A DNA stretch of 11,639 nt from a virus. The stretch is taken from UHGV virus genome UHGV-0070899; one strand, written 5' to 3'. Below the pieces are notes generated by a model. It searched no databases and was not told where the DNA came from. It saw nothing but the letters and a program-made list of their open reading frames with translations. Below are positions 1 to 11,639 of this stretch, piece by piece (position 1 is the stretch's first letter; each line of letters opens with the position of its first letter). A program made the translations under genes and the position numbers.

Positions 1-69
1 AGTATTTTTAGTCATCCTGTTTACCTCTTTCTCAGGAAGTTTAGTCTCCAGGATTCCCGGGGCGGTTCA
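1..69 (-). mobile_element. Partial IS3-family insertion sequence (IS629/IS1203-like): terminal inverted repeat plus first 5 codons of orfA; element body lies left of the window
   Basis: Reverse complement of 1-69 reads TGAACCGCCCCGGGAATCCTGGAGACTAAACTTCCTGAGAAAGAGGTAAACAGG-ATGACTAAAAATACT, which I recognise from memory as the IS629 left end and the MTKNT start of its OrfA. Nearly identical inverted copy at 11571-11639. Confidence 0.75.
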
Positions 70-70
70 G

Positions 71-160
71 TCTGGTAAGTGCCGTATTGCTGTGTGGTAT
101 TCAGCATGTGCTGTACGACCAGAGGCAATTGGTGTTGGTCTGCCTAACCAGACTGCGTGA
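71..160 (+). pseudogene. 3-prime fragment of the P22-type major coat protein gene (last 29 codons), truncated upstream by the IS
   Basis: Frame open from the IS boundary to TGA at 158-160 translates [29 protein letters not shown], closely matching the recalled P22 gp5 C-terminus (...[27 protein letters not shown]). A terminator follows. Confidence 0.75.
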
Positions 161-167
161 TAACCAG

Positions 168-192
168 AGGGAGCTTCGGCTCCCTTTTTTAT
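168..192 (+). terminator. Rho-independent terminator after the coat gene
   Basis: Stem GGGAGC (169-174), loop TTCG, stem GCTCCC (179-184), then a run of six T (185-190). Confidence 0.6.
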
Positions 193-204
193 CTGGAGAC
201 AAGC

Positions 205-441
205 ATGACACACATGATCTTTCGTCATGGCGACATGAAGAAGTGGAAAGGCGTTGGCTACGACTTTGAAATCGTGAAAGCCGAAGAGCTTCAGGAATAT
301 CTGGATGCTGGTTGGTTTTCACATCCTGATGACCTTTTGAAGGATGTTGCAGAGCCAGAGCCAGAGCCAGAAGAAAAACAGCGTAAAAAGCCTGGTCGAA
401 AACCTAAGGCGGCAGCAGATGAACCTGACAACGAAGGGTGA
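205..441 (+). CDS. Small hypothetical protein (78 aa), acidic PEPEPE stretch and basic KKPGRKPK tail; occupies the slot between coat and gene 4
   Basis: ATG at 205 preceded by GGAG (195-198) with a 6-nt spacer. The longer GTG-157 version in the ORF track would run through the terminator, so it was trimmed. Overlaps the next gene's start by 23 nt. Confidence 0.5.
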
Positions 442-919
442 TTTAGTCCTTGCAGCATTACGTAAGCTCGGTGTTGCATCAAATGCCACGTTAACCGATG
501 TCGAACCGCAGTCTATGGAAGACGGGGTCAACGACCTTGAAATGATGATGGCTGAATGGCTTGGCGGTGATGTGTCACCTGGTATCAACGTTGGCTACAT
601 TTTTGCTGATGCAGATGTCGCTCCGGATCCGGGCGATGAGCACGGCTTATCAAATAACGCTATCAATGCCGTCATTTTCAACCTTGCCTGCCGCATTGCT
701 CCAGATTATGCGCTGGAAGCGTCAGCAAAACTTATAACCACTGCCAGATACGGGAAAGAGCGACTCGTCAAACTGTCTGCAATGGACAGAGCAAAAGCCG
801 CTAAATGTAAGTCCGGTTATCCAAACCGTATGCCTGTTGGTAGCGGTAATCAGTTGGCGAAGTGGAACGGTTGGAATTACTTCCACCGGAAGGAACCTTG
901 CGATAACGGGAGCGAATAA
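419..919 (+). CDS. P22 gp4-like tail accessory / head-completion protein (166 aa)
   Basis: From ATG 419 the protein reads [47 protein letters not shown]... and later [27 protein letters not shown], matching recalled P22 gp4 ([33 protein letters not shown]...[14 protein letters not shown]). Same length as P22 gp4. The ORF-track start at 344 is an upstream extension. Confidence 0.85.
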
Positions 920-2338
920 ATGCCGATTCAGCAACTTCCGCTTATGAAAGGTGTCGGCAAAGACTTTCGAAACGCCGACTATATCGACTATCTGCCAGTG
1001 AATATGTTGGCTACACCCAAAGAAATCCTGAACAGCAGCGGATATCTTCGCTCATTCCCGGGCATTGCCAAACGTTCTGATGTGAACGGCGTATCGCGAG
1101 GCGTCGAGTACAACATGGCACAGAATGCTGTTTATCGCGTGTGTGGTGGCAAACTGTATAAGGGCGAAAGTGAGGTCGGTGATGTTGCCGGAAGTGGTCG
1201 CGTATCAATGGCGCATGGTCGAACATCACAGGCGGTAGGCGTTAACGGGCAACTGGTCGAATACCGCTATGATGGCACGGTTAAAACCGTCTCAAACTGG
1301 CCTGCAGACAGCGGGTTTATGCAGTATGAGTTAGGTTCTGTTCGCGACATTACGCGTTTACGTGGGCGTTATGCGTGGTCAAAAGACGGCACTGATTCAT
1401 GGTTTATCACTGACCCTGAAGACGAATCGCATCCTGACCGCTACAGCGCACAATATCGAGCCGAGTCTCAGCCTGACGGCATCATCGGCATCGGAACATG
1501 GCGAGACTTCATCGTCTGCTTTGGTTCATCGACGATTGAATATTTCTCCCTGACGGGGGCAACCACCGTTGGTGCCGCTTTGTATGTCGCACAGCCATCG
1601 CTGATGGTGCAGAAAGGCATTGCCGGGACTTACTGCAAAACGCCGTTCGCCGATTCGTATGCGTTCATCAGCAATCCGGCAACAGGTGCGCCGTCTGTGT
1701 ATATCATCGGCTCCGGTCAGGTATCACCAATCGCCAGCGCGAGCATTGAGAAAATTCTTCGCTCCTACACTGCTGATGAACTGGCTGATGGTGTGATGGA
1801 ATCGCTGCGATTTGATGCGCATGAACTGCTGATTATCCACCTTCCGCGCCACGTCCTCGTGTACGACGCATCTTCAAGCGCCAATGGTCCGCAATGGTGT
1901 GTGTTGAAAACAGGCCTGTATGACGATGTGTACCGCGCTATCGACTTCATTTACGAAGGAAATCAGATAACGTGCGGCGATAAGCTGGAATCGGTTACCG
2001 GGAAATTGCAGTTCGATATCAGCAGCCAGTATGGGCTACAGCAAGAACACCTGCTGTTTACTCCGTTGTTCAAAGCGGATAACGCCAGATGCTTTGATCT
2101 GGAGGTGGAATCATCGACGGGTGTTGCTCAGTACGCTGACCGCCTGTTCCTCTCTGCAACCACTGACGGCATAAATTACGGGCGTGAGCAGATGATTGAG
2201 CAGAATGAACCGTTCGTTTACGACAAACGCGTTTTGTGGAAGCGAGTAGGGCGCATCAGGAAAAATGTTGGCTTCAAACTGCGCGTTATCACTAAGTCGC
2301 CTGTCACTCTGTCTGGCGCTCAGATAAGGATTGAGTAA
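920..2338 (+). CDS. P22 gp10-like tail accessory protein (472 aa)
   Basis: Same length as P22 gp10 and in the expected position after gp4. Stop of the upstream gene abuts the ATG (TAA-ATG); GGAG at about 909-912. Confidence 0.8.
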
Positions 2339-3186
2339 TGGCGGATTCGAATCTCAATGTGCCGGTAATCATTCAGGCTACACGGCTCGACACATCAGTC
2401 CTTCCACGCAATATCTTCTCGCAGTCGTATCTGCTTTACGTTATCGCACAGGGTACTGATGTTGGTAATGTGGCTAACAAGGCCAACGAGGCCGGACAGG
2501 GCGCTTATGACGCACAAGTCAGGAACGATGAGCAGGATGTGATTCTCGCTGACCATGAGCAGCGAATTTCTGCTGCGGAAGCAACGCTTGTTAATCATGA
2601 GGAGCGAATCAGCCAGGCAGAATCAACTCTTCAGGAACATGAAACACGAATAGCTCAGAATGAAAGCGATATTGCGTCGCTTGATACCAGAGTTCAGTCG
2701 CTGGAATCGCAGGTTTCAGACCATGAAACGCGCATCGATGCTCTGGAGTATGCCACTACTCGCAAGAAGTCAGAGGTTGTTTACTCTGGCGTATCTGTAA
2801 CCATCCCGACAGCGCCGACCAGCCTTGTTAGCCTGCTGAAAACGCTCACGCCATCATCCGGCACGTTGGCACCATTCTTCGACACCGTTAACAACAAGAT
2901 GGTTGTGTTCAACGAGAACAAAACCTTGTTCTTCAAGCTGTCGATCGTCGGGACGTGGCCCAGCGGAACCGCAAACAGGTCAATGCAGCTAACCTTTTCC
3001 GGATCTGTTCCTGACACACTGGTTAGCAGTCGTAATGCGGCGACAACAACCGACAACATCCTGTTAGCTACGTTCTTCAGCGTGGATAAAGACGGCTTTC
3101 TTGCCACAAATGGCAGTACGTTAACCATTCAGTCAAATGGGGCGGCGTTTACTGCCACAACCATCAAAATCATTGCGGAGCAGTGA
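2338..3186 (+). CDS. Tail needle (P22 gp26 family) with heptad coiled-coil core and extra C-terminal knob-type domain (282 aa)
   Basis: N-terminus [43 protein letters not shown] resembles the gp26 N-terminal domain. Residues 72-138 are regular heptads ([21 protein letters not shown] ...). The C-terminal ~140 aa is absent from P22 gp26 (233 aa), and the 282-aa length matches what I recall for the Sf6 needle. Start overlaps the gp10 stop (TAATG). Confidence 0.85.
2551..2751 (+). repeat. Degenerate in-frame tandem repeat (about 42-nt unit, 14 codons; HE-RI---E-TL-- x about 4.5) encoding the needle coiled coil
   Basis: Periodic protein motif [15 protein letters not shown] / [14 protein letters not shown] / [14 protein letters not shown] / [14 protein letters not shown] / [10 protein letters not shown] read from the translation. 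Confidence 0.5.
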
Positions 3187-3653
3187 TGGAAATAAAGCTC
3201 ATCGATAATCCGGTGAAGCTTGCAGAATTCCTCAACAACCCGGCAAACACGGGAAATATCGTAGACAGTGGAGATAGATACTACATCAAGCCTGATGCGG
3301 TATATCTCGGCATCTACGAAGGATTAGTGTTGGCTGGCGTTCATGAAGTGCGTAACTTCTGGCATAGCGTTGTTGAATGCCATGCGGTGTACGCCCCCGG
3401 ATTCCGTGGCGAATATGCACTGCAAGGGCATCGATTATTCTGCAAATGGCTTCTCGAAAACTCACCATTCCTTAACAGCATTACCATGGTTCCTGACACC
3501 ACGAAATACGGACGGTCAATTATCCGTTTGCTTGGCGCTACCCGTGTTGGTCACCTTGATGATGCGTACATGAGTAACGGAAAACCGGTTGGAATCACCC
3601 TCTATCAATTACCTCGTTCGAAATATGAGGAGCTAATAAATGTTAGTACTTAG
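3186..3653 (+). CDS. Virion protein in the P22 gene 14 position (about 155 aa); function inferred from synteny only
   Basis: ATG at 3186 overlaps the needle gene stop (TGATGG). Lies between needle and ejection-protein genes as in P22. I do not recognise the sequence itself. Confidence 0.55.
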   Translation: MEIKLIDNPVKLAEFLNNPANTGNIVDSGDRYYIKPDAVYLGIYEGLVLAGVHEVRNFWHSVVECHAVYAPGFRGEYALQGHRLFCKWLLENSPFLNSITMVPDTTKYGRSIIRLLGATRVGHLDDAYMSNGKPVGITLYQLPRSKYEELINVST

Positions 3654-4299
3654 CGAAAGCTTCAAGAATAAATTGCTTCCCATGAATGGGTATATGAAAG
3701 GCGGCAGCGACTCCGGCTCTAAAGCCCAGGCACGCGCAACTGAAAAGGGTATCGAATTGCAGCGCGAAATGTGGCAGACGAACATGCAGAACCTTGCACC
3801 GTTCACGCCACTCGCTCAGCAGTATGTATCAGAGTTGCAGAATCTTTCCTCTCTTCAGGGGCAAGGTCAGGCGCTTAACCAGTATTACAACTCCCAGCAG
3901 TATAAAGACCTTGCAGGGCAGGCGCGTTACCAGAGTCTGGCAGCAGCAGAGGCAACGGGTGGATTAGGCTCTACAGCAACAGGAAACCAGTTAGCAGCAA
4001 TCGCACCTACACTCGGTCAAAACTGGCTGTCAGGTCAGATGAACAACTACAACAATCTGGCAAACATTGGCCTTGGTGCTCTTACAGGTCAGGCAAACGC
4101 CGGGCAGAACTACGCTAACAACGTCAGCCAGTTGTATCAACAGCAGGCGGCGGCAGCGGCAGCAAATGCCAATAAACCGTCTGGTTTTCAGAGTGCTCTC
4201 GGTGGAGCTGCTGCAGGTGCTGCGATGGGTGCTGCAATCATGCCTGGTTGGGGTACAGCAATTGGTGCTGGCGTCGGTCTTCTTGGTTCACTTTTTTAA
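3640..4299 (+). CDS. Ejection (DNA-transfer) protein, P22 gp7-like (219 aa)
   Basis: Strong SD GAGGAG 7 nt upstream of ATG 3640. Size and position match P22 gp7. Gln/Asn-rich middle and Gly/Ala-rich hydrophobic C-terminus. Confidence 0.7.
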   Translation: MLVLSESFKNKLLPMNGYMKGGSDSGSKAQARATEKGIELQREMWQTNMQNLAPFTPLAQQYVSELQNLSSLQGQGQALNQYYNSQQYKDLAGQARYQSLAAAEATGGLGSTATGNQLAAIAPTLGQNWLSGQMNNYNNLANIGLGALTGQANAGQNYANNVSQLYQQQAAAAAANANKPSGFQSALGGAAAGAAMGAAIMPGWGTAIGAGVGLLGSLF

Positions 4300-4311
4300 T
4301 GGAGGTGTCTC

Positions 4312-5724
4312 TTGGCTACATGGCAACAGGCTGGTAATTCAGGCGCGCTTCTTGCCGGGTTGGGCGGCATGAACTCCAACGCTCCAAGAGCAAGTGATGC
4401 AGACGCCACACTTGCATACATTCGACAGAACAACGAAATGGAACGATCAGGTCGCAATAACATCGGCCTTCAGGCGTTACAGGGACTTGGTAGTGTCGCT
4501 CAAATATATCAAGCCGCAAAGCAACAGGAAGAGAATGCTGAATTCCAAAAAGAATATGCGGCAGCCATCCAGTCAGGTGATCGACAGCAGGTGCGAGATC
4601 TGATGACCAAATATCCTGGTCAATTAGAGAAGATTCAGTCTGGTATGAAGTGGGCAGACGAAGACCAGCGTGATGAAATTGGCAATCTAGCGGCAGGCGC
4701 TCGTCTTGCGGCATCGTCTCCAGAAGCAATGCAATCATGGCTGCAAAACAACGCCAAGGAACTGACTCGCGTCGGTGTTGACCCTAATAACGTTGCTCAG
4801 ATGTATCAGCAGAATCCTTCAGGGTTTGGTGAGTTTGTTGATCACCTTGGAATGGCTGCTCTTGGCCCAATTGATTACTTCAATGTTCAGGACAAGATGG
4901 CTGGTCGTGAGATTGACCGAGGTAGGCTGGCAGAGACAATTCGCAGCAATCAGGCTGGCGAAGCACTTCAGGCGAGAGGGCAAAACCTTTCCTATCAGTC
5001 AGCAATGACTGGGCACAATATCGCAGCACAACGCTTGGCTCTGGATCAGCAAGAGTTCGGGTTTAAGATGCAGCAAGCACAGGAAAAGGCTCAGCAGTTG
5101 ATTAGCGAAGCACCTAAGCTGTCAGTAAACATGGAAAAAGGCATTGAGACGGCTGTAAACAATGCCACAGCATCATCAAATTCAGCCAATTCTATGAGTG
5201 CGCTAGCTCAACAGTTCAGAGCAGAAAAACCAACGACAGGTTTGTTCGGTAACGCACAGAACATGTTCGCAAAACTTACCGGAAGCGATACGACATTGCG
5301 TGATTTGCGCATTCGCCAAAATGCCCTTGTTAACAGTCAGGTTCTTAAATTCCTACCTCCCGGCCCCGCAACGGATAAAGACGTTGAGATCGTTCGTCAG
5401 GGTGCACCAACTGACATGGATAACCCTGAGACGGTCGCAAGATGGCTTGATGCTATGGCAAACCTTGAGCGACGAAACGCGCAGTTTAATGAGTTTAAAG
5501 CCGAGTGGATGAGCGCGAATGGCAACCCTGGACAATCGCGTAATGGCGGTCAGATATTGGGGTTGGATGTTAAAAAAGGTGAATCATTGGGAAGTGCCGT
5601 TAAACGGTATATGTCAATGAATACTGACGCAGCGCCAGCGCAAGATTCGCCACCTTCAGGAGAACCACGGAATCAGGTTGGGTCATATACCTCAAAATCA
5701 GGCATTCAATTTACGGTGGAATGA
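4312..5724 (+). CDS. Ejection (DNA-transfer) protein, P22 gp20-like (470 aa), apparent TTG start
   Basis: Size matches P22 gp20 (about 471 aa) and order is conserved. GGAGG at 4301-4305 lies 6 nt before TTG 4312; there is no in-frame ATG until codon 20. Confidence 0.7.
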
Positions 5725-7664
5725 TGAAAGTAACTGCAAACGGTAAGACATTTACCTTCCCTGATGGTACGAGCACGGAAGATATTGGATCTGCAATTGA
5801 TGAGTATTTTGCTGGTCAGGCTGTTCAGCAGCAAACAGTTAATCAACCAACTCAAAACCAAGAGCAGCCTGTAGAACAGCAAGATGGATTTATGTCTGAC
5901 CTTGGCGAAGCAGTAAAAGAGACTGGTCGCGGACTGGTTCAGGCTGGCGTAAACGTGGCAAACATACCAGCATCAGTTGCCGATGCTGTAACAAGCGCGG
6001 CGGCATGGGCTGGCGGCAAACTCGGCATTGGCGATGGTACATATCAACCAGCGCCACGAGCAACAACGCAGGGATTAGAGCAGGTATTTGGACTTCAGCA
6101 AGGTGCTCTGACTCCACAAACGACAGAAGGTAGGGTGTTTGCGGAGGCATTGCCTTACCTGGCTACCGTTGGAGTTGGCGGCGCTTCAACGCAGGCTCCA
6201 ACACTTGCTGGTAGAATTACTCAAGGTGCAGCCCGTCTTCTGGCAGAAAACGCAGTCGGATCACTTGCCGCAAACAGTGAGAAAAATGATGCGGGAAAAC
6301 TGGCAACAGATATAGGTATTGGCATGCTAACAGGTGGTGCTGTTAATACTGTTGCAAAAGGGATTGGGCGTGGAATAACAGCCTTTAAAGGTGATATTGC
6401 GCCAGAAGTGGCGAAAAAAATTGCCACATCAGAATCGATGGGCGTGACACCAATGACATCTGATGTTATCACGCCGAAAAATGCTTTCACTCGCGGCCTT
6501 ACTCAGGATGCCGAGGGGGCTTTGCTCGGGACAGGCTCAAAGCGAGCGGAGCAATATGCAACGCGTAGTAAGTTGGTAAGTAATTATTTTGACCGTTTTG
6601 GTGAGTACAACCCGGATGATGTGGTGAAATCTCTGACCACCACGTTAAGGGGACGGAAGGATGCCGCTGGCGCTGTTATCAATGACGTCACCAATAAAAT
6701 GGGTAATGCCGCAGTTGATACCACAAATACCATGAATGCTCTGAATACAGCGATCGCAAGACAGGAACGGCTTGGGACGTCTGCCAATCAAAGCCTGCTT
6801 ACATCATTGCGTAACCTACGTGAAGAATTAGCAAACCCTGCAACTGATTTGGATGTTACGTTTGATCTCTTGCGTCAGCACAGAACAGCATTTAGATCCA
6901 ATGTTCAGGGAGATGCTATGGTCTTCCCCAACCAGGCAAAAGCAGCTACCAATATGGTAGAGAATGCAATGTCAAAAGATCTTCGTAACGCAGTTGCAAA
7001 AAACCTCGGTGCATCAGACGCAGCAAAATACCTTAAAGCAAACTCCGATTATGCAAACGTTTATAATAAGGTGCTTAATAAAAACATTGCTAACAAGCTC
7101 AACAAGGCAAGCAGTGAAGCCAGTCCTGAACTTATAAATACCGTTGTATTAAGCAGAAAACCATCTGACGTGAAACGAATCTGGAGCGCATTGGATGATA
7201 AAGGGAAAGATGCTATGCGTGCAGCTTACGTCAGCAAAATGGCGGAAAAGGCCGGTGACTCTCCAGCCAAGTTCATCACTGAAGTTAATAAGCTTAAATC
7301 TCAGTCAGGCGGTGAAATTTACAACACTATTTTTTCTGGAAAGCACATGAAAGAGCTTGATGCTCTTCATGAAGTTCTACAGCAAACAGCAAGGTCAGAC
7401 ACCGCAAATGTAGTAACTCAGACGGGGCAATCGCAAGCCAACAGGATAAGGACGATTGGCGCAACTGCGACTCTTGGCGTATCAATGGGGCTTGAGGCTG
7501 GTTTCGGTGCAATGATGCGCTTGTATGAGTCCAAAGCAGCAAGGAATGCTCTCTTACGTCTGGCAAACACCAAAGCAGGAACACCAGCCTATGAAAGAGC
7601 GCTAAATAATGCTGCAAATGCTATACGCCCTATACTTGCACCCCAAATTACAGCAGAACAATAG
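5721..7664 (+). CDS. Ejection (DNA-transfer) protein, P22 gp16-like (647 aa)
   Basis: N-terminus [33 protein letters not shown] matches my recollection of P22 gp16. Start overlaps the gp20 stop (ATGA). Last gene before the tailspike. Confidence 0.75.
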
Positions 7665-7738: not shown

Positions 7739-7797
7739 ATGCCCAAAATTCACCGTGGCCATGCTGCGGCGATTCCTTGTATCTGGAGCAAATTAAA

Positions 7798-9759
7798 ATG
7801 ACAGATTCAATAAATGCCAATGTTGTAGTGAGCATGCCTTCTCAACTCTTCACTATGGCGCGTTCTTTTAAAGCCGTAGCCAATGGAAAAATTTATATCG
7901 GTAAAATTGACACTGACCCGGTAAATCCTGAAAACCAGATTCAGGTTTATGTGGAGAACGAAGACGGCTCTCACGTTCCTGTTTCGCAACCAATCATCAT
8001 TAACGCCGCTGGTTACCCTGTATATAACGGACAGATTGCCAAGTTCGTTACTGTGCAGGGTCATTCTATGGCTGTTTATGATGCATATAGTGCACAGCAG
8101 TTCTATTTTCCAAACGTGCTGAAGTATGACCCTGATCAGTTGCGACAAGAACTTGCTGGTCCTGATGGATATACTTTAATTCCGTCTATGCCAATACATA
8201 TTCAAATGCAAAAATGGCGTGACGATGGTGATATTAGGGGATGGGGATGTGTTTGCGATGGCGTTGCTGATGATTCAGACAACTTTCAGGCTGCAATTGT
8301 TTATTCAGAAGCGCACGATCGGCAATTATTTATTCCTGGGCCGATAAGAATCACGAAGAAAATCACGTTTACAAAGCCCCCTCAGTTACGTGGTTTCATG
8401 TACTCGCCGCCAGTAATTGGTAATTTTCAGGGCACCCCATACGCACACAAGGGATGCATAATCTATTCAGAGGTTGCATCTGGGTACTGCATAGAAATAA
8501 ACCCGCCAAGTAATAATCAGTACATACGCGGTCTGAACATTATTGACGTTCACGTACTGGCAAGTGGACCAGGTGTTTCAGGAGCTGGAGTATTAATAGC
8601 AAACTGCGGATGGGGTGGTTATGTTCGTGGACTTGTTGTTGAAGGATTCCATGGTGGTGGGCTGACTCTAAGTCAGTTGCAAGATACACTTTTTGACCAA
8701 TTGGAAATTCTAGATTGCGGAACAGATGGTGATGTATCTGGTGCCGGTAGATATGCTTTAACAATCAATAATGGCTCCAACATCCTGGCATTCAACAGAT
8801 GCAGGATGGAAGCTAACAACGCGCAAATGCATATTATTAATGGGGGCCATTTCGAGTTTAACAATTGCCATTTTGAGCAAGGTGATTATCCGAATTGTTC
8901 TCTTGGTCAAGAGTTTCAGAGAATAAATAGATATCCATCTATTGTATTGCAGCGGTGCAGCAATGTGAAATTTATAGGTGGTATGATTTTTGGTGCGACA
9001 CTTCAGCAACAGATGTCTGTTCATTCGGTAACTCCATCTCAGGCAGCATACAACTTTTCTATTGGAGGTGACTGCACGAACGTAATATTTGAAGGGACAA
9101 CCTTAGGATTTGGGTATGGGTCAGGAAAAATTATAGAGCACCATGGAAGTGGAAGTTTCAGTAATTGTAACTTTGAAAATATGTGCACAGAAGTAGCCCC
9201 AATTATACTCGACGGTAGTATTCTGTTTACAGGAAATAATGTTAGTTATACCGATAATTTAAGCAGCAATGTCTTTATAGGAATGGAAGCATACCTTGCA
9301 ACTATCAAAGGTAATTTCTTCGGTTGCATAAATAGTTCATCTGTAAATAAAACATCTGGAGCTTTGTTTACTGGCAGCAAATTAAGAAAGGCAAGGCTTG
9401 GTATCAATCAATATGTCATAAGCAAGATGAGCATGTTTACAGACGGAGGTTTGATATCCATAGACCAAAGCACTGAGGGATTCAGTCCCTTGTCAACAGG
9501 AACTCCAGCCATCAATGCATCAAGTCCTAATACGATTTACTTTTTTAGCTCTCCAGGAACCGTCACTGATTTTACAGGAATCATTGATAATCAGAGGCCT
9601 ACATTCTTAAATGCCAGCTCTGGAAACGTCACATTTCAAAATGGCCCCGCCCTTCATTGCAAGGGAGGAGTTAATGCGGTTGTCCCTCCTGGCGAGATGA
9701 TCACATTTATGTACAGTGGATTTTCTGGAGTCAAGCTAGAGATTAGCAGGACATTTTGA
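7798..9759 (+). CDS. Tailspike: P22-family head-binding domain (residues 1 to about 114) fused to a distinct beta-helix-like receptor-binding domain (653 aa)
   Basis: From ATG 7798: [60 protein letters not shown]...NVLKYDPDQ, matching the conserved P22 gp9 / Sf6 / HK620 N-terminal domain. The remainder is Gly/Asn/Ser-rich with repeated rung-like motifs ([18 protein letters not shown]). GGAG 9 nt upstream. The ORF-track start at 7777 is a TTG extension. Confidence 0.9.
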
Positions 9760-9767
9760 AATTATAT

Positions 9768-9784
9768 GCCCCTTGGATAGGGGC
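9768..9784. terminator. Hairpin between the convergent tailspike and GNAT genes, possibly a bidirectional terminator
   Basis: GCCCCT-TGGAT-AGGGGC, followed by AT-rich sequence on both sides. Sits between the tailspike stop (9757-9759) and the GNAT stop (9801-9803). Confidence 0.4.
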
Positions 9785-9800
9785 GATTTCATAGTATTTA

Positions 9801-10559
9801 CTAGATCTCTATCTCAATGCTATCAGGTAAATATTTTTTATATTTAAGCAGAGATAATTCGATTTCTTTCTTTGATATCTCAAATAAAATATCAAGTTCA
9901 GTTTCACCTGTTTTTTTTGCTCCAAACCTTTCATGGAATTTTATTACCGATGTATTACCCTTTCTTACATCAAAATGAGATTTTGCGAATCCAAGCTTAA
10001 GTGCATATGTATACAAAAGAAGTGCAGATTCTATTGCATAATGTGCAGGGGCGTTATCTACTATTACCCATGATCCCCAGCAAAAAGAATCTCCCACTTG
10101 GTCATACATCCTGATGGTGCCTAATCTTTCCCCTGAGTAGTTCTCAATAATAAAATATGCTTGACCTTTACTGCTTTCGTAATATTTCAACCAGTCACGT
10201 TGCTGCTCAACATCTGTTGAGGTTGAGCTGATAAATCTACCTTTCTTCTGATCGGTTCTTACTCTAACTATAAATTCAGCATCATCTTGGTTTGCGTTAC
10301 GCAAAACTATTGTTTTACCGACAATTTTTTTTGCTTTAGTGATTTGTGGGAATATATGGTAACCATTCATAGCTAATGCCTCCTGGACAACATCAGACTT
10401 GTCATTAAAAAGTATCTCTACGCATGAAATTGGTTTCGAGCTGTTGTGAACCACTGCAGCTCTAATAATTTCATCATGATTAAGAGATAGCAACTTAAGC
10501 TCATCTTGGCTAGTTTCTGGAGAGTTAGCCTTCCTGAAGTTATTGATAGTGTCGTTCAA
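9801..10559 (-). CDS. GNAT-family N-acetyltransferase (RimL/RimJ-like fold) with a 63-aa N-terminal extension; the alternative internal start at 10370 would give a 189-aa GNAT-only product
   Basis: C-terminal half carries GNAT hallmarks (TIVLRNANQDDAEF..., WGSWVIVDN...SHFDVRKGNTSVIKFHERFGAKKTGE). TTG at 10559 has GAGGA 6 nt upstream; in-frame ATG at 10370 has a perfect AGGAGG 8 nt upstream. Gene is strongly AT-rich compared with the phage core. Confidence 0.8.
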   Translation of the reverse strand: MNDTINNFRKANSPETSQDELKLLSLNHDEIIRAAVVHNSSKPISCVEILFNDKSDVVQEALAMNGYHIFPQITKAKKIVGKTIVLRNANQDDAEFIVRVRTDQKKGRFISSTSTDVEQQRDWLKYYESSKGQAYFIIENYSGERLGTIRMYDQVGDSFCWGSWVIVDNAPAHYAIESALLLYTYALKLGFAKSHFDVRKGNTSVIKFHERFGAKKTGETELDILFEISKKEIELSLLKYKKYLPDSIEIEI

Positions 10560-10990
10560 AATATATCCTCATGTATGTCTATGTTCTTTCTATAACTTTT
10601 CTCTAAAACACAAGTTCAGCATTGACAATAGCAGCAAGCATCTTGTTTTCCTTTCTATAAGCATAGCTACCTACATCAATGCTTCATTTATAGTATGAGA
10701 AAATAACTCACGTTCATAATCATTTTAATTATTCTCTCTCTTCAATATGCTAAGTTACCATCTCAAGCAAACCATTTTGGTTATAGGTAAACATTTTTGA
10801 ATAAAATTTGCGGAATTTCGGAGTTCAAATAGCGATTGTTTATGGTTCTGTCTTTAACGGCCTCTTTTAATTGATAAAGCATTCGCAGCCATAATGGTTC
10901 AATGTTCATAGTTACACACATAATCAAACTCACACCTAAAAGAGATATTACAGTATAATCAAAAAACCTAGATATACAAAGCTTTGCGTT
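10560..10990 (-). promoter_or_regulatory. AT-rich non-coding leader upstream of the GNAT gene, containing a 10-bp direct repeat (CTTTCTATAA at 10586-10595 and 10651-10660) and a 12-codon upstream ORF
   Basis: No convincing ORF on either strand. The direct repeat and the short SD-preceded ORF (10603-10641, minus strand) were read directly. No promoter hexamers could be assigned confidently. Confidence 0.3.
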
Positions 10991-11006
10991 CTTCGATAGT
11001 GGTTAA

Positions 11007-11030
11007 GGTGGATCACTCCACCTTTTCATC
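11007..11030 (+). terminator. Terminator-like hairpin (+ strand) of unknown cognate transcript
   Basis: GGTGGA-TCAC-TCCACC followed by TTTTCATC. The minus-strand version is not followed by a T-run. Confidence 0.3.
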
Positions 11031-11326
11031 AAGCCAGTCCGCCCACCACTGCATCATTTCTCTGCGCTTATCGTGGCAGATGCCTCACTATCACACGGTG
11101 ATGGTTCATTACTGGTTTGCATAATGGATAGAGAACTGAGGATAAAAGATATCCCAAAACCCAAAAATCTCATCTTTAGGATTTGCAGAAAGGGAGGCGT
11201 GAACAGATACCTGCGCATGAAGACGGAACTAGTCCAGATGTGATATTTGTGGTGATCACATACATCATCAACGATGCTCGTTATGGTGAGTTTGATGACT
11301 ACCCGCTGAAGTGAAAATTGTGTTGT

Positions 11327-11346
11327 GTACCAAATTGCGTACCAAA
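11327..11346. repeat. Two direct copies of GTACCAAA spaced 12 bp apart, candidate integrase arm-type or other protein-binding sites
   Basis: gtaccaaattgc-gtaccaaactaa read directly, about 55-75 bp from the proposed host/phage junction. Confidence 0.3.
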
Positions 11347-11386
11347 CTAAAATCACAAATCATGAAGCCCTTGTTCATGGCGGTTC

Positions 11387-11449
11387 TCAGGGGTGTTGCG
11401 CGTAATCGTGAAACAAAAAGGTAGATTGTTGCTTACCGTCATTCATCAT
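11387..11449 (-). pseudogene. sbcB: 5-prime fragment of exonuclease I gene: first 16 codons intact, then divergence and a stop after 4 more codons
   Basis: Minus-strand translation from 11449 is MMNDGKQQSTFLFHDY-AQHP*. The first 16 residues match the recalled E. coli SbcB N-terminus (MMNDGKQQSTFLFHDYETFGTHP...). The match ends at about 11401. Confidence 0.55.
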
Positions 11450-11570
11450 TAGGTTAAATCCGTTATTTCTGCTGTCTGCCAGAGTATCAAATATCACCGT
11501 GCTAATCAGCTTTAGCGCGACAATTTGACAGCGAGTGACAACAGATCATGTCAGATAAAAATGAGAGGGT

Positions 11571-11639
11571 TGAACCGCCCCGGAAATCCTGGAGACTAAA
11601 CTTCCTGAGAAAGAGGTAAACAGGATGACTAAAAATACT
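11571..11639 (+). mobile_element. Partial IS3-family insertion sequence (IS629/IS1203-like): terminal inverted repeat plus first 5 codons of orfA (ATG at 11625); element body lies right of the window
   Basis: TGAACCGCCCCGGAAATCCTGGAGACTAAACTTCCTGAGAAAGAGGTAAACAGG-ATGACTAAAAATACT. Differs from the left copy at one base (GGAAAT here, GGGAAT in the left copy). Confidence 0.75.

Follow-up and report, generated by a model that had tools for sequence, protein, structure and literature searches.

A prophage-end gene predicted to encode an FdhC-type nucleotide-sugar N-acyltransferase fused to a leucine-rich repeat variant module: a candidate O-antigen conversion enzyme

Phages are well known to convert the host O-antigen by means of Gtr, Oac/OafA, Wzy and Iap proteins. 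To our knowledge, the textbook phage-driven O-antigen changes all act on the assembled glycan and are carried out by membrane proteins. The gtrABC genes of P22 and SfII type, which follow the tailspike gene as a moron and have the O-antigen as target (PMC7685785), encode a set of three membrane proteins by which glucose is added in the periplasm via Und-P-Glc, and Sf6 Oac, Sf101 Oac1b and the OafA/OafB-like proteins, whose genes lie convergent after the tailspike gene and before attP or attR, are integral-membrane Acyl_transf_3 proteins that O-acetylate assembled polysaccharide. Phage-borne O-acetyltransferases and Wzy proteins have also been described in Acinetobacter (PMC9676051). During O-antigen synthesis itself, FdhC turns dTDP-Fuc3N into Fuc3N(R3Hb) (PMC4869667). 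Here we describe a GNAT gene in an 11,639-nucleotide stretch of the virus genome UHGV-0070899 (hereafter the window), which lies in the same slot as the Oac-type genes, with presumably the same purpose of altering the O-antigen receptor of the lysogen, and shares with gtrABC both its moron position and its predicted target. Judged from sequence and a structural model, its product is probably a lysogenic-conversion enzyme of a different kind: a soluble, cytoplasmic nucleotide-sugar N-acyltransferase of the FdhC/QdhC clade that carries a two-repeat leucine-rich repeat variant (LRV) module. The gene and its two parts are as follows.

9801..10559, minus strand: complete LRV-GNAT gene, stop codon included, from the open reading frame (ORF) list and translation (252 aa, TTG start).
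10371..10559, minus strand: N-terminal LRV helical-repeat module, aa 1-63, recognised by conservation, the structural model, LRV matches and the ratio of non-synonymous to synonymous substitution rates (dN/dS).
9801..10370, minus strand: GNAT catalytic core, an FdhC/QdhC-type sugar N-acyltransferase domain, aa 64-252, recognised with Pfam, phmmer and Foldseek.

Pfam Acetyltransf_3 (PF13302) covers aa 84-215 of the protein with 42.7 bits against a cutoff of 25.4. An AlphaFold2 model built with 29 homologues has the GNAT alpha/beta fold that had been proposed from sequence (mean predicted local distance difference test, pLDDT, 93.2; predicted TM-score 0.80), and a Foldseek comparison of the model with the PDB gave 447 matches at E <= 0.001, the best 50 of which are all GNAT acyltransferases. 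The sequence-only reading of this locus had called the domain RimL/RimJ-like. That label, which follows from the Acetyltransf_3 assignment, holds at the superfamily level only; by sequence and by modelled structure the specific relative is FdhC, which is far closer. When the protein was compared by phmmer with all PDB sequences, FdhC of Acinetobacter nosocomialis (5kta) matched aa 82-244 with an E-value of 7.4e-31 and the next match stood at 0.053. The best Foldseek match is likewise FdhC (5ktc; E 2e-17, root-mean-square deviation 1.5 Å, 35% identity, target-normalised TM-score 0.84), in a structure that holds bound coenzyme A and the acylated dTDP-sugar product; the PDB title of FdhC names a GNAT for a nucleotide-linked sugar. 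PseH, RimJ, SpeG and others trail FdhC by eight orders of magnitude in this comparison, at 11-20% identity, the next family after FdhC standing at about 1e-9 and RimJ and SpeG at about 1e-8 with 16% identity. The protein is 36% identical to FdhC of E. coli O103 and 38% identical to its O91 homologue, each of which is encoded between genes for a 3,4-ketoisomerase and a DegT aminotransferase, and the window family has the motifs SFCWGSW and HF.V.K.N..V..FH..FGA in common with FdhC. It thus has the same GNAT sub-fold as the described FdhC/QdhC enzymes, with 35-38% identity over the catalytic domain, whereas FdhC is without the 63-aa LRV module. The PHROGs database offers a generic acetyltransferase annotation only.

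The product was also expected to be soluble, unlike Gtr and Oac, and this agrees with the absence of any transmembrane segment from the protein (highest Kyte-Doolittle 19-residue mean 1.07) and of any match to the PF01757 (Acyl_transf_3) domain. In contrast to gtrABC, to which it is unrelated in sequence and fold, and to the Oac and OafA-like proteins, it is a soluble GNAT predicted to N-acylate a precursor.

From this solubility the sequence-only reading had gone on to propose a function other than modification of the host surface, and here the results point the other way. A role outside glycan metabolism, as a GNAT toxin acting on aminoacyl-tRNA, an MccE/RimL-type detoxifier of aminoacyl-nucleotide antibiotics or a protein acetyltransferase serving exclusion or defence, would be in keeping with the broad Acetyltransf_3 (RimJ/RimL) membership, with the presence of RimJ, SpeG and peptide acetyltransferases among the fold matches, and with the general knowledge that defence functions are common among morons at the ends of prophages. 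RimJ/RimL and the C-terminal domain of MccE do belong to the same Pfam family, but the likeness is one of superfamily: their structural scores lie well below that of FdhC, they are not among the significant PDB sequence matches, of which FdhC is the sole one, and it is FdhC that has the SFCWGSW-type motifs in common with the window protein. The type II toxin-antitoxin GNATs TacT, AtaT and ItaT have an adjacent small antitoxin gene, whereas neither the window nor the homologous prophage loci contain a co-directional small ORF resembling an antitoxin partner, and no PADLOC defence model matches the window protein. We therefore give a non-glycan role very little credence; the sequence and structural evidence points back to O-antigen modification, by way of a cytoplasmic nucleotide-sugar precursor.

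The genes that surround members of the family indicate which precursor this might be. In a scan of one genome per species, 80 loci encoded homologues 43-65% identical to the core (most of them 46-57%), and their neighbourhoods were probed with E. coli O2 and O70 proteins to a distance limit of 8 kb. Genes for an FdtA/QdtA-type 3,4-ketoisomerase and an FdtB/QdtB-type aminotransferase are both found within this distance at 42 of the 80 loci, usually adjacent, and at 29 of the 54 that have at least 5 kb of sequence on both sides. Relatives 46-57% identical to the window protein thus adjoin these pathway genes just as fdhC does, whereas the window gene is itself an orphan, standing alone between the tailspike gene and attR at a prophage end, outside any sugar-biosynthesis cluster and with no fdtA/qdtA and fdtB/qdtB neighbours. 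Twelve of the 80 loci additionally have an FdtC-like LbH acetyltransferase (at least 50% identity), which suggests for the GNAT a role beyond that of a second acetylase. A member with the LRV module (locus L073) is encoded in an operon of the order FdtC-like, FdtA, FdtB, GT2, LRV-GNAT. In a neighbour-joining tree of the cores, built without support values, the Enterobacterales clade that includes the window protein nests among pathway-linked enzymes, O103 FdhC and its O91 counterpart falling outside. Bracketed in this manner by its relatives, the substrate class would be a dTDP-3-amino-3,6-dideoxyhexose.

An enzyme of the same family could nevertheless act on another amino sugar, such as dTDP-Fuc4N of the enterobacterial common antigen, dTDP-Qui4N or a UDP-4-amino sugar, in which case the enterobacterial common antigen or another glycan would be modified. 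Orphan homologues occur in species with no demonstrable 3-amino pathway, PseH (a UDP-4-amino-sugar N-acetyltransferase) is the next sugar-acting structure among the fold matches listed, and the window protein has a weak match to the NCBIfam model for PseH. The latter scores only 27.7 bits, far below its cutoff of 93.1, and the family is linked specifically with 3,4-ketoisomerases of FdtA/QdtA type, enzymes diagnostic of 3-amino sugars; in addition, all three host genomes checked (see below) encode a 3-amino pathway. Taking these points together we regard a different amino-sugar target as distinctly unlikely.

The N-terminal extension had been described from sequence as HEAT/LRV-like, and this description has held up well. 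Twenty-one long-form homologues keep the pattern FRxANSPxT..L..LS..D..vRaaV.hN...P....EILfNDkS..VqeAL, and the AlphaFold2 model places five helices in aa 2-64 with pLDDT of 88-96. The Pfam LRV and LRV_2 models do not match the window extension when it is searched alone; aligned homologues do exceed the Pfam cutoffs (P0037, LRV_2, 29.1 against 27; P0029, LRV, 27.3 against 21.6). A phmmer search of the full library with a 67-aa segment of the extension found 784 proteins at E <= 0.001, with E-values down to 9e-45; most are long proteins, each aligned by up to 20 repeats, and those that were domain-scanned are LRV, LRV_2 or HEAT repeat proteins. Window aa 1-63 align with the repeat units of LRV/LRV_2 proteins (PF01816, PF25591) at 30-36% identity but, in contrast to those long proteins, are limited to about two repeats joined to an enzyme. 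The dN/dS of the extension is 0.07-0.24, with synonymous sites saturated in most pairs, from which it follows that the extension is translated and under constraint; purifying selection acts on both extension and core.

Homologues that bear an N-terminal extension, whether of this LRV type or of a second type found in Undibacterium, are orphans at 16 of 17 loci, as against 22 of 63 for the short forms (Fisher P 1e-5 among the 80 loci, a value that ignores relatedness). Because extension-bearing homologues are almost always orphans, it is tempting to speculate that the LRV extension serves to dock the enzyme onto proteins of the resident pathway. The second type is unrelated in sequence, with a Ser/Pro-rich stretch followed by ...IAAQIQACAQQAGIAQRLA..., and is fused to the same GNAT core; it lies upstream of position 8001 in nine loci from Undibacterium and relatives (L050, L051, L062, L063, L069, L070, L071, L077 and L096), all of them orphans with isomerase and aminotransferase genes absent within 8 kb. 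At a further locus, from a Burkholderiales metagenome-assembled genome (L024:6435-7640), a gene for a 402-aa HEAT-repeat protein lies directly upstream of a long-form LRV-GNAT gene, and this neighbour may be related to the role of the LRV module.

The position of the window gene is that of a conversion gene. The presence of a P22 injectosome translocase among the genes upstream in the window identifies the latter as a P22-like prophage, and the region around the GNAT gene contains the following features.

7777..9759, plus strand: P22-type tailspike, 660 aa, whose receptor-binding part is tied to O70 strains (Head_binding domain, E 1e-64).
9768..9784, minus strand: intrinsic-terminator-like hairpin between the convergent tailspike and GNAT genes (GCCCCT-ATCCA-AGGGGC, then a T-rich tail).
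10560..11060, no strand assigned: AT-rich non-coding spacer upstream of the GNAT gene (34% GC).

As had been noted from the sequence, the gene is AT-rich and convergent with the tailspike gene, having its own terminator and a GC content of 35.7%; the structural genes (1-7664) have 49.3% and the tailspike gene has about 41.7%. Sequence matching the sbcB-type attachment region of Sf101, mEp234 and Stx phages makes up the final 600 bp of the window, and when positions 9600-11639 were compared with phage genomes by megablast the DNA flanking the attachment site alone was matched. Sf101 has the order tailspike(+), oac1b(-), shared flank, attP, int, and the window GNAT gene sits at the position of oac1b. 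In P22-like prophages of E. coli ECL27977 and at a second site of E. coli 14EC017, a gene for a 631-aa membrane acyltransferase follows, again convergent, a related tailspike gene. The presence of oac1b and OafA-like genes at this position, the latter in prophages of O70 strains, marks it as a genuine slot for alternative O-antigen-modifying cargo, in accord with the lysogenic-conversion slot inferred from sequence. The tailspike in these O70-strain prophages (L112:4662-8529, L111:4662-8529) is of 647 aa and the acyltransferase is OafA-like; this tailspike gene shares the first 885-1067 nt of its receptor-binding region with that of the window, while the C-terminal third differs. Strain 14EC017 thereby holds two different conversion cargos.

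Among 5426 complete E. coli genomes, 14EC017 is the sole one that carries the window allele (99.9% identity). There it lies in a prophage remnant between sbcB and dacD, composed of a truncated integrase, an IS1 element, the last 192 aa of the tailspike and the intact GNAT gene; those 192 C-terminal tailspike residues are about 99% identical between the window and this O70 strain. A search for homologues, one of the checks proposed at the outset, found that long forms recur at the ends of prophages of at least four types, in convergent orientation to genes for tailspikes or tail fibres. One follows an 865-aa Tail_spike_N tailspike in a siphovirus-like prophage of E. coli (L006, 64% identity) and another a 658-aa tailspike (L009, 71%), whereas tail-fibre and tail-fibre assembly genes precede those of a myovirus-like prophage with baseplate J in Citrobacter freundii (L011, 57%) and of E. 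coli FT130 at sbcB-dacD. Elsewhere a frameshifted long form lies near a baseplate-J gene on an IMG/VR contig (L021, 50%), and another long form adjoins an integrase gene (L023). The gene is intact in two heavily decayed prophages, those of 14EC017 and FT130. Long forms also occur as chromosomal orphans, in Cronobacter dublinensis and C. muytjensii and in the Burkholderiales Sapientia, Undibacterium and Ralstonia. The islet with the long-form gene in the C. dublinensis chromosome (L002:5536-8097) also has an MBOAT and AlgX-like pair, of the kind that functions in polysaccharide O-acetylation; the corresponding site of C. turicensis lacks this pair.

The genomes that carry the family have the pathway on which such an enzyme would depend. 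The O70 cluster of 14EC017 contains rfbB, rfbA and genes for a 3,4-ketoisomerase, a DegT aminotransferase and LbH acyltransferases, and the O2/O50 cluster of FT130 contains fdtA, fdtC and fdtB, the O2 O-antigen bearing a D-Fuc3NAc side branch (PMC7685785). The identities of the O70 proteins to FdtA/B and to QdtA/B are ambiguous and do not separate Fuc3N from Qui3N. A third genome, the untyped MB06173 (L105:8874-9428, L113), has a short form between ugd and wzzB, outside the galF-gnd interval and beside a gene for an NAD-dependent epimerase; its O cluster has the isomerase and aminotransferase genes but just a 56-aa fragment of the LbH acetyltransferase, and it may exemplify natural replacement of the LbH acetylase by the GNAT. 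A 3-amino-sugar pathway is hence present in all three family-carrying genomes of the E. coli complete-genome collection, against a background of 316 of 5426 genomes (5.8%) with an O70 isomerase-aminotransferase pair detectable by blastn. For two carriers of two the probability by chance is about 0.003, and adding MB06173 as a third lowers it further.

The tailspike leads to the same serogroup. Relatives of its region 8140-9759 are found in seven E. coli records, six of which belong to O70, a serogroup with only eight records among the 5426 genomes (hypergeometric P < 1e-11); since these relatives are almost confined to O70 strains, the window phage is O70-associated, and strains of this serogroup make the substrate predicted for the enzyme. 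Matches to tailspikes of known phages are all below 30% identity.

The fdtC gene of FT130, as of O2 genomes generally, is shown by PGAP as two incomplete pseudogene fragments (L106:11633-12100). We considered and rejected the possibility that it is a pseudogene, because the 155-aa ORF, which starts with TTG, is intact and the split annotation is generic in O2 clusters. The split fdtC of O2/O50 clusters looks like a systematic annotation artefact.

We envisage the following course of events. The host of the lysogen would make dTDP-Fuc3N or dTDP-Qui3N by means of RmlA/B, FdtA/QdtA and FdtB/QdtB. The phage enzyme would capture this intermediate, competing with the LbH acetyltransferase FdtC/QdtC of the host for the free amine, and would add an acyl group of its own, for which, by analogy with FdhC, a non-acetyl group such as 3-hydroxybutanoyl is plausible. 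The sugar in the O-unit would then bear another N-acyl group or, should the glycosyltransferase not accept the product, would be lost from the O-unit (compare O2 with O50; PMC7685785). Either outcome would alter the receptor for the tailspike of the phage itself and for related phages. The LRV module possibly docks to a protein of the host pathway, and it would in this way supply a physical coupling that operon-encoded enzymes do not need.

Several observations weigh against this scheme. Identity to characterised FdhC enzymes is only 35-38%. A tblastn search with the protein against 50,697 sequenced phage genomes found no homologue, and many homologues are chromosomal orphans (Cronobacter; L026, L036, L048). 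The association with host pathways is built on two or three genomes, and it is drawn from genomes that carry homologues, not from the window's own host; co-inheritance could contribute to it, because the sbcB-dacD site lies about 17 kb from the O-antigen cluster. Finally, hosts such as FT130, with its fdtC, have an intact N-acetyltransferase, so that the phage enzyme must out-compete it and the glycosyltransferase must tolerate the product.

Translation of the window gene could begin at either of two in-frame starts, each with its own Shine-Dalgarno sequence. Both had been pointed out in the sequence-only reading, with predicted products of 252 and 189 aa, and both can be read in the DNA.

10557..10570, minus strand: long-form start, read from the sequence, with GAGGA at 10570-10566, a 6-nt spacer and TTG at 10559-10557.
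10368..10384, minus strand: internal candidate start, read from the sequence, with AGGAGG at 10384-10379, an 8-nt spacer and an in-frame ATG at 10370-10368 (Met64).

In all six close homologues examined the long start is an ATG with its own Shine-Dalgarno sequence, at the aligned position, from which we conclude that the long product is the conserved one and that the TTG of the window allele is a weaker start codon. Full-length homologues are 252-253 aa in length and 48-88% identical to the window protein, and PGAP calls the same 759-bp coding sequence in E. coli 14EC017, at 99.9% identity. The internal ATG would yield the 189-aa product. The codon at the Met64 position is ATG or GTG in seven close homologues, distant long forms without Met64 have Asn, Lys or Leu there, and the internal AGGAGG forms codons of a conserved Q-E-A in the second LRV repeat; true short forms start within a few residues of the Met64 position. 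Initiation at ATG 10370 is therefore possible, but on these comparisons would not be required by the family, and the existence of short forms and of truncated alleles with an intact core suggests that the GNAT core is able to function alone. A 189-aa C. turicensis protein (L003:9812-10570) was considered as a natural short form and rejected, because it is a long form in which TAA replaces a conserved Lys in the LRV extension (FFND*S); its core remains intact, as seen on 16 contigs, and relative to C. dublinensis the extension has diverged further than the core. A truncated allele resembling it is also found in L028.

The promoter of the gene presumably lies within 10560..11060, although a scan of this interval for the sigma-70 consensus gave no match. 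The corresponding spacer in homologous loci is about 100-250 bp long and ends at a divergent S24 peptidase gene. What remains of this gene in the window, at 11061-11308 (+), is a frameshifted and 5'-truncated remnant of an S24 (UmuD-like) peptidase that covers aa 45-128 in two frames and is 48-59% identical to the intact 129-aa gene divergent from the GNAT gene in L006, L011 and FT130. The S24 peptidase was rejected as a functional partner of the GNAT, since S24 remnants are also found beside the OafA-type slot and in the Sf101 attachment region. A 100-aa ORF at 11054-11356(-), the counterpart of which is carried as a hypothetical gene in the Sf101 annotation, was rejected as a partner gene as well; it is antisense to the frameshifted remnant and probably spurious. 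The window departs from the 14EC017 sequence at 11571, and its last 69 bases (11571-11639) match the ends of IS3-family elements elsewhere in 14EC017 at 97-99% identity, so that an inserted insertion sequence (IS) apparently adjoins the prophage end towards dacD.

These surroundings bear on the possibility that the gene is a neutral or redundant passenger from a polysaccharide cluster, which duplicates a host activity or is poorly expressed and confers no conversion phenotype. The TTG start where homologues have ATG, the result of the sigma-70 scan, the decayed S24 gene with an IS element nearby, the nonsense allele of C. turicensis and the rarity of the gene in complete genomes could all be read in this manner. 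A passenger would, however, hardly be expected to show purifying selection on both domains, to have recurred independently beside receptor-binding genes in several phage types, to stay intact while the surrounding prophage decays, or to occupy a slot otherwise filled by proven conversion genes, and we consider this explanation unlikely.

Conversion by an LRV-fused, FdhC-type acyltransferase would combine the familiar with the new. Its enzyme family and its biological purpose are already known, whereas the stage of modification, the orphan LRV-fused architecture and carriage by a phage are new; a literature search found no phage-borne nucleotide-sugar N-acyltransferase, and nothing relevant on Qui3N or Fuc3N in Cronobacter. 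As a broader and more tentative proposal, for which we would not claim even odds, temperate phages of several morphotypes may use an LRV-docked orphan enzyme of FdhC type, fed by the dTDP-3-amino-sugar pathway of the host, to rewrite or remove one N-acyl sugar of the O-antigen at the precursor stage, with serotype conversion and superinfection exclusion as the outcome. On that proposal the mode of action, which would hijack a substrate in the cytoplasm, would be unlike every Gtr, Oac, Wzy or Iap mechanism described so far.

O-antigen change brought about by phages lies behind serotype diversity and vaccine escape as well as the host range of phage therapy. If the reading given here is true, interception of a nucleotide-sugar intermediate by a soluble phage enzyme would be a new route to seroconversion. 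It could also account for N-acyl heterogeneity left unexplained by O-antigen clusters alone, and in silico serotyping would then have to cover such genes outside the cluster. More generally, the link between N-terminal extensions and orphan status points to a rule, open to testing, on how enzymes gained by horizontal transfer connect with the pathways already resident in a cell.

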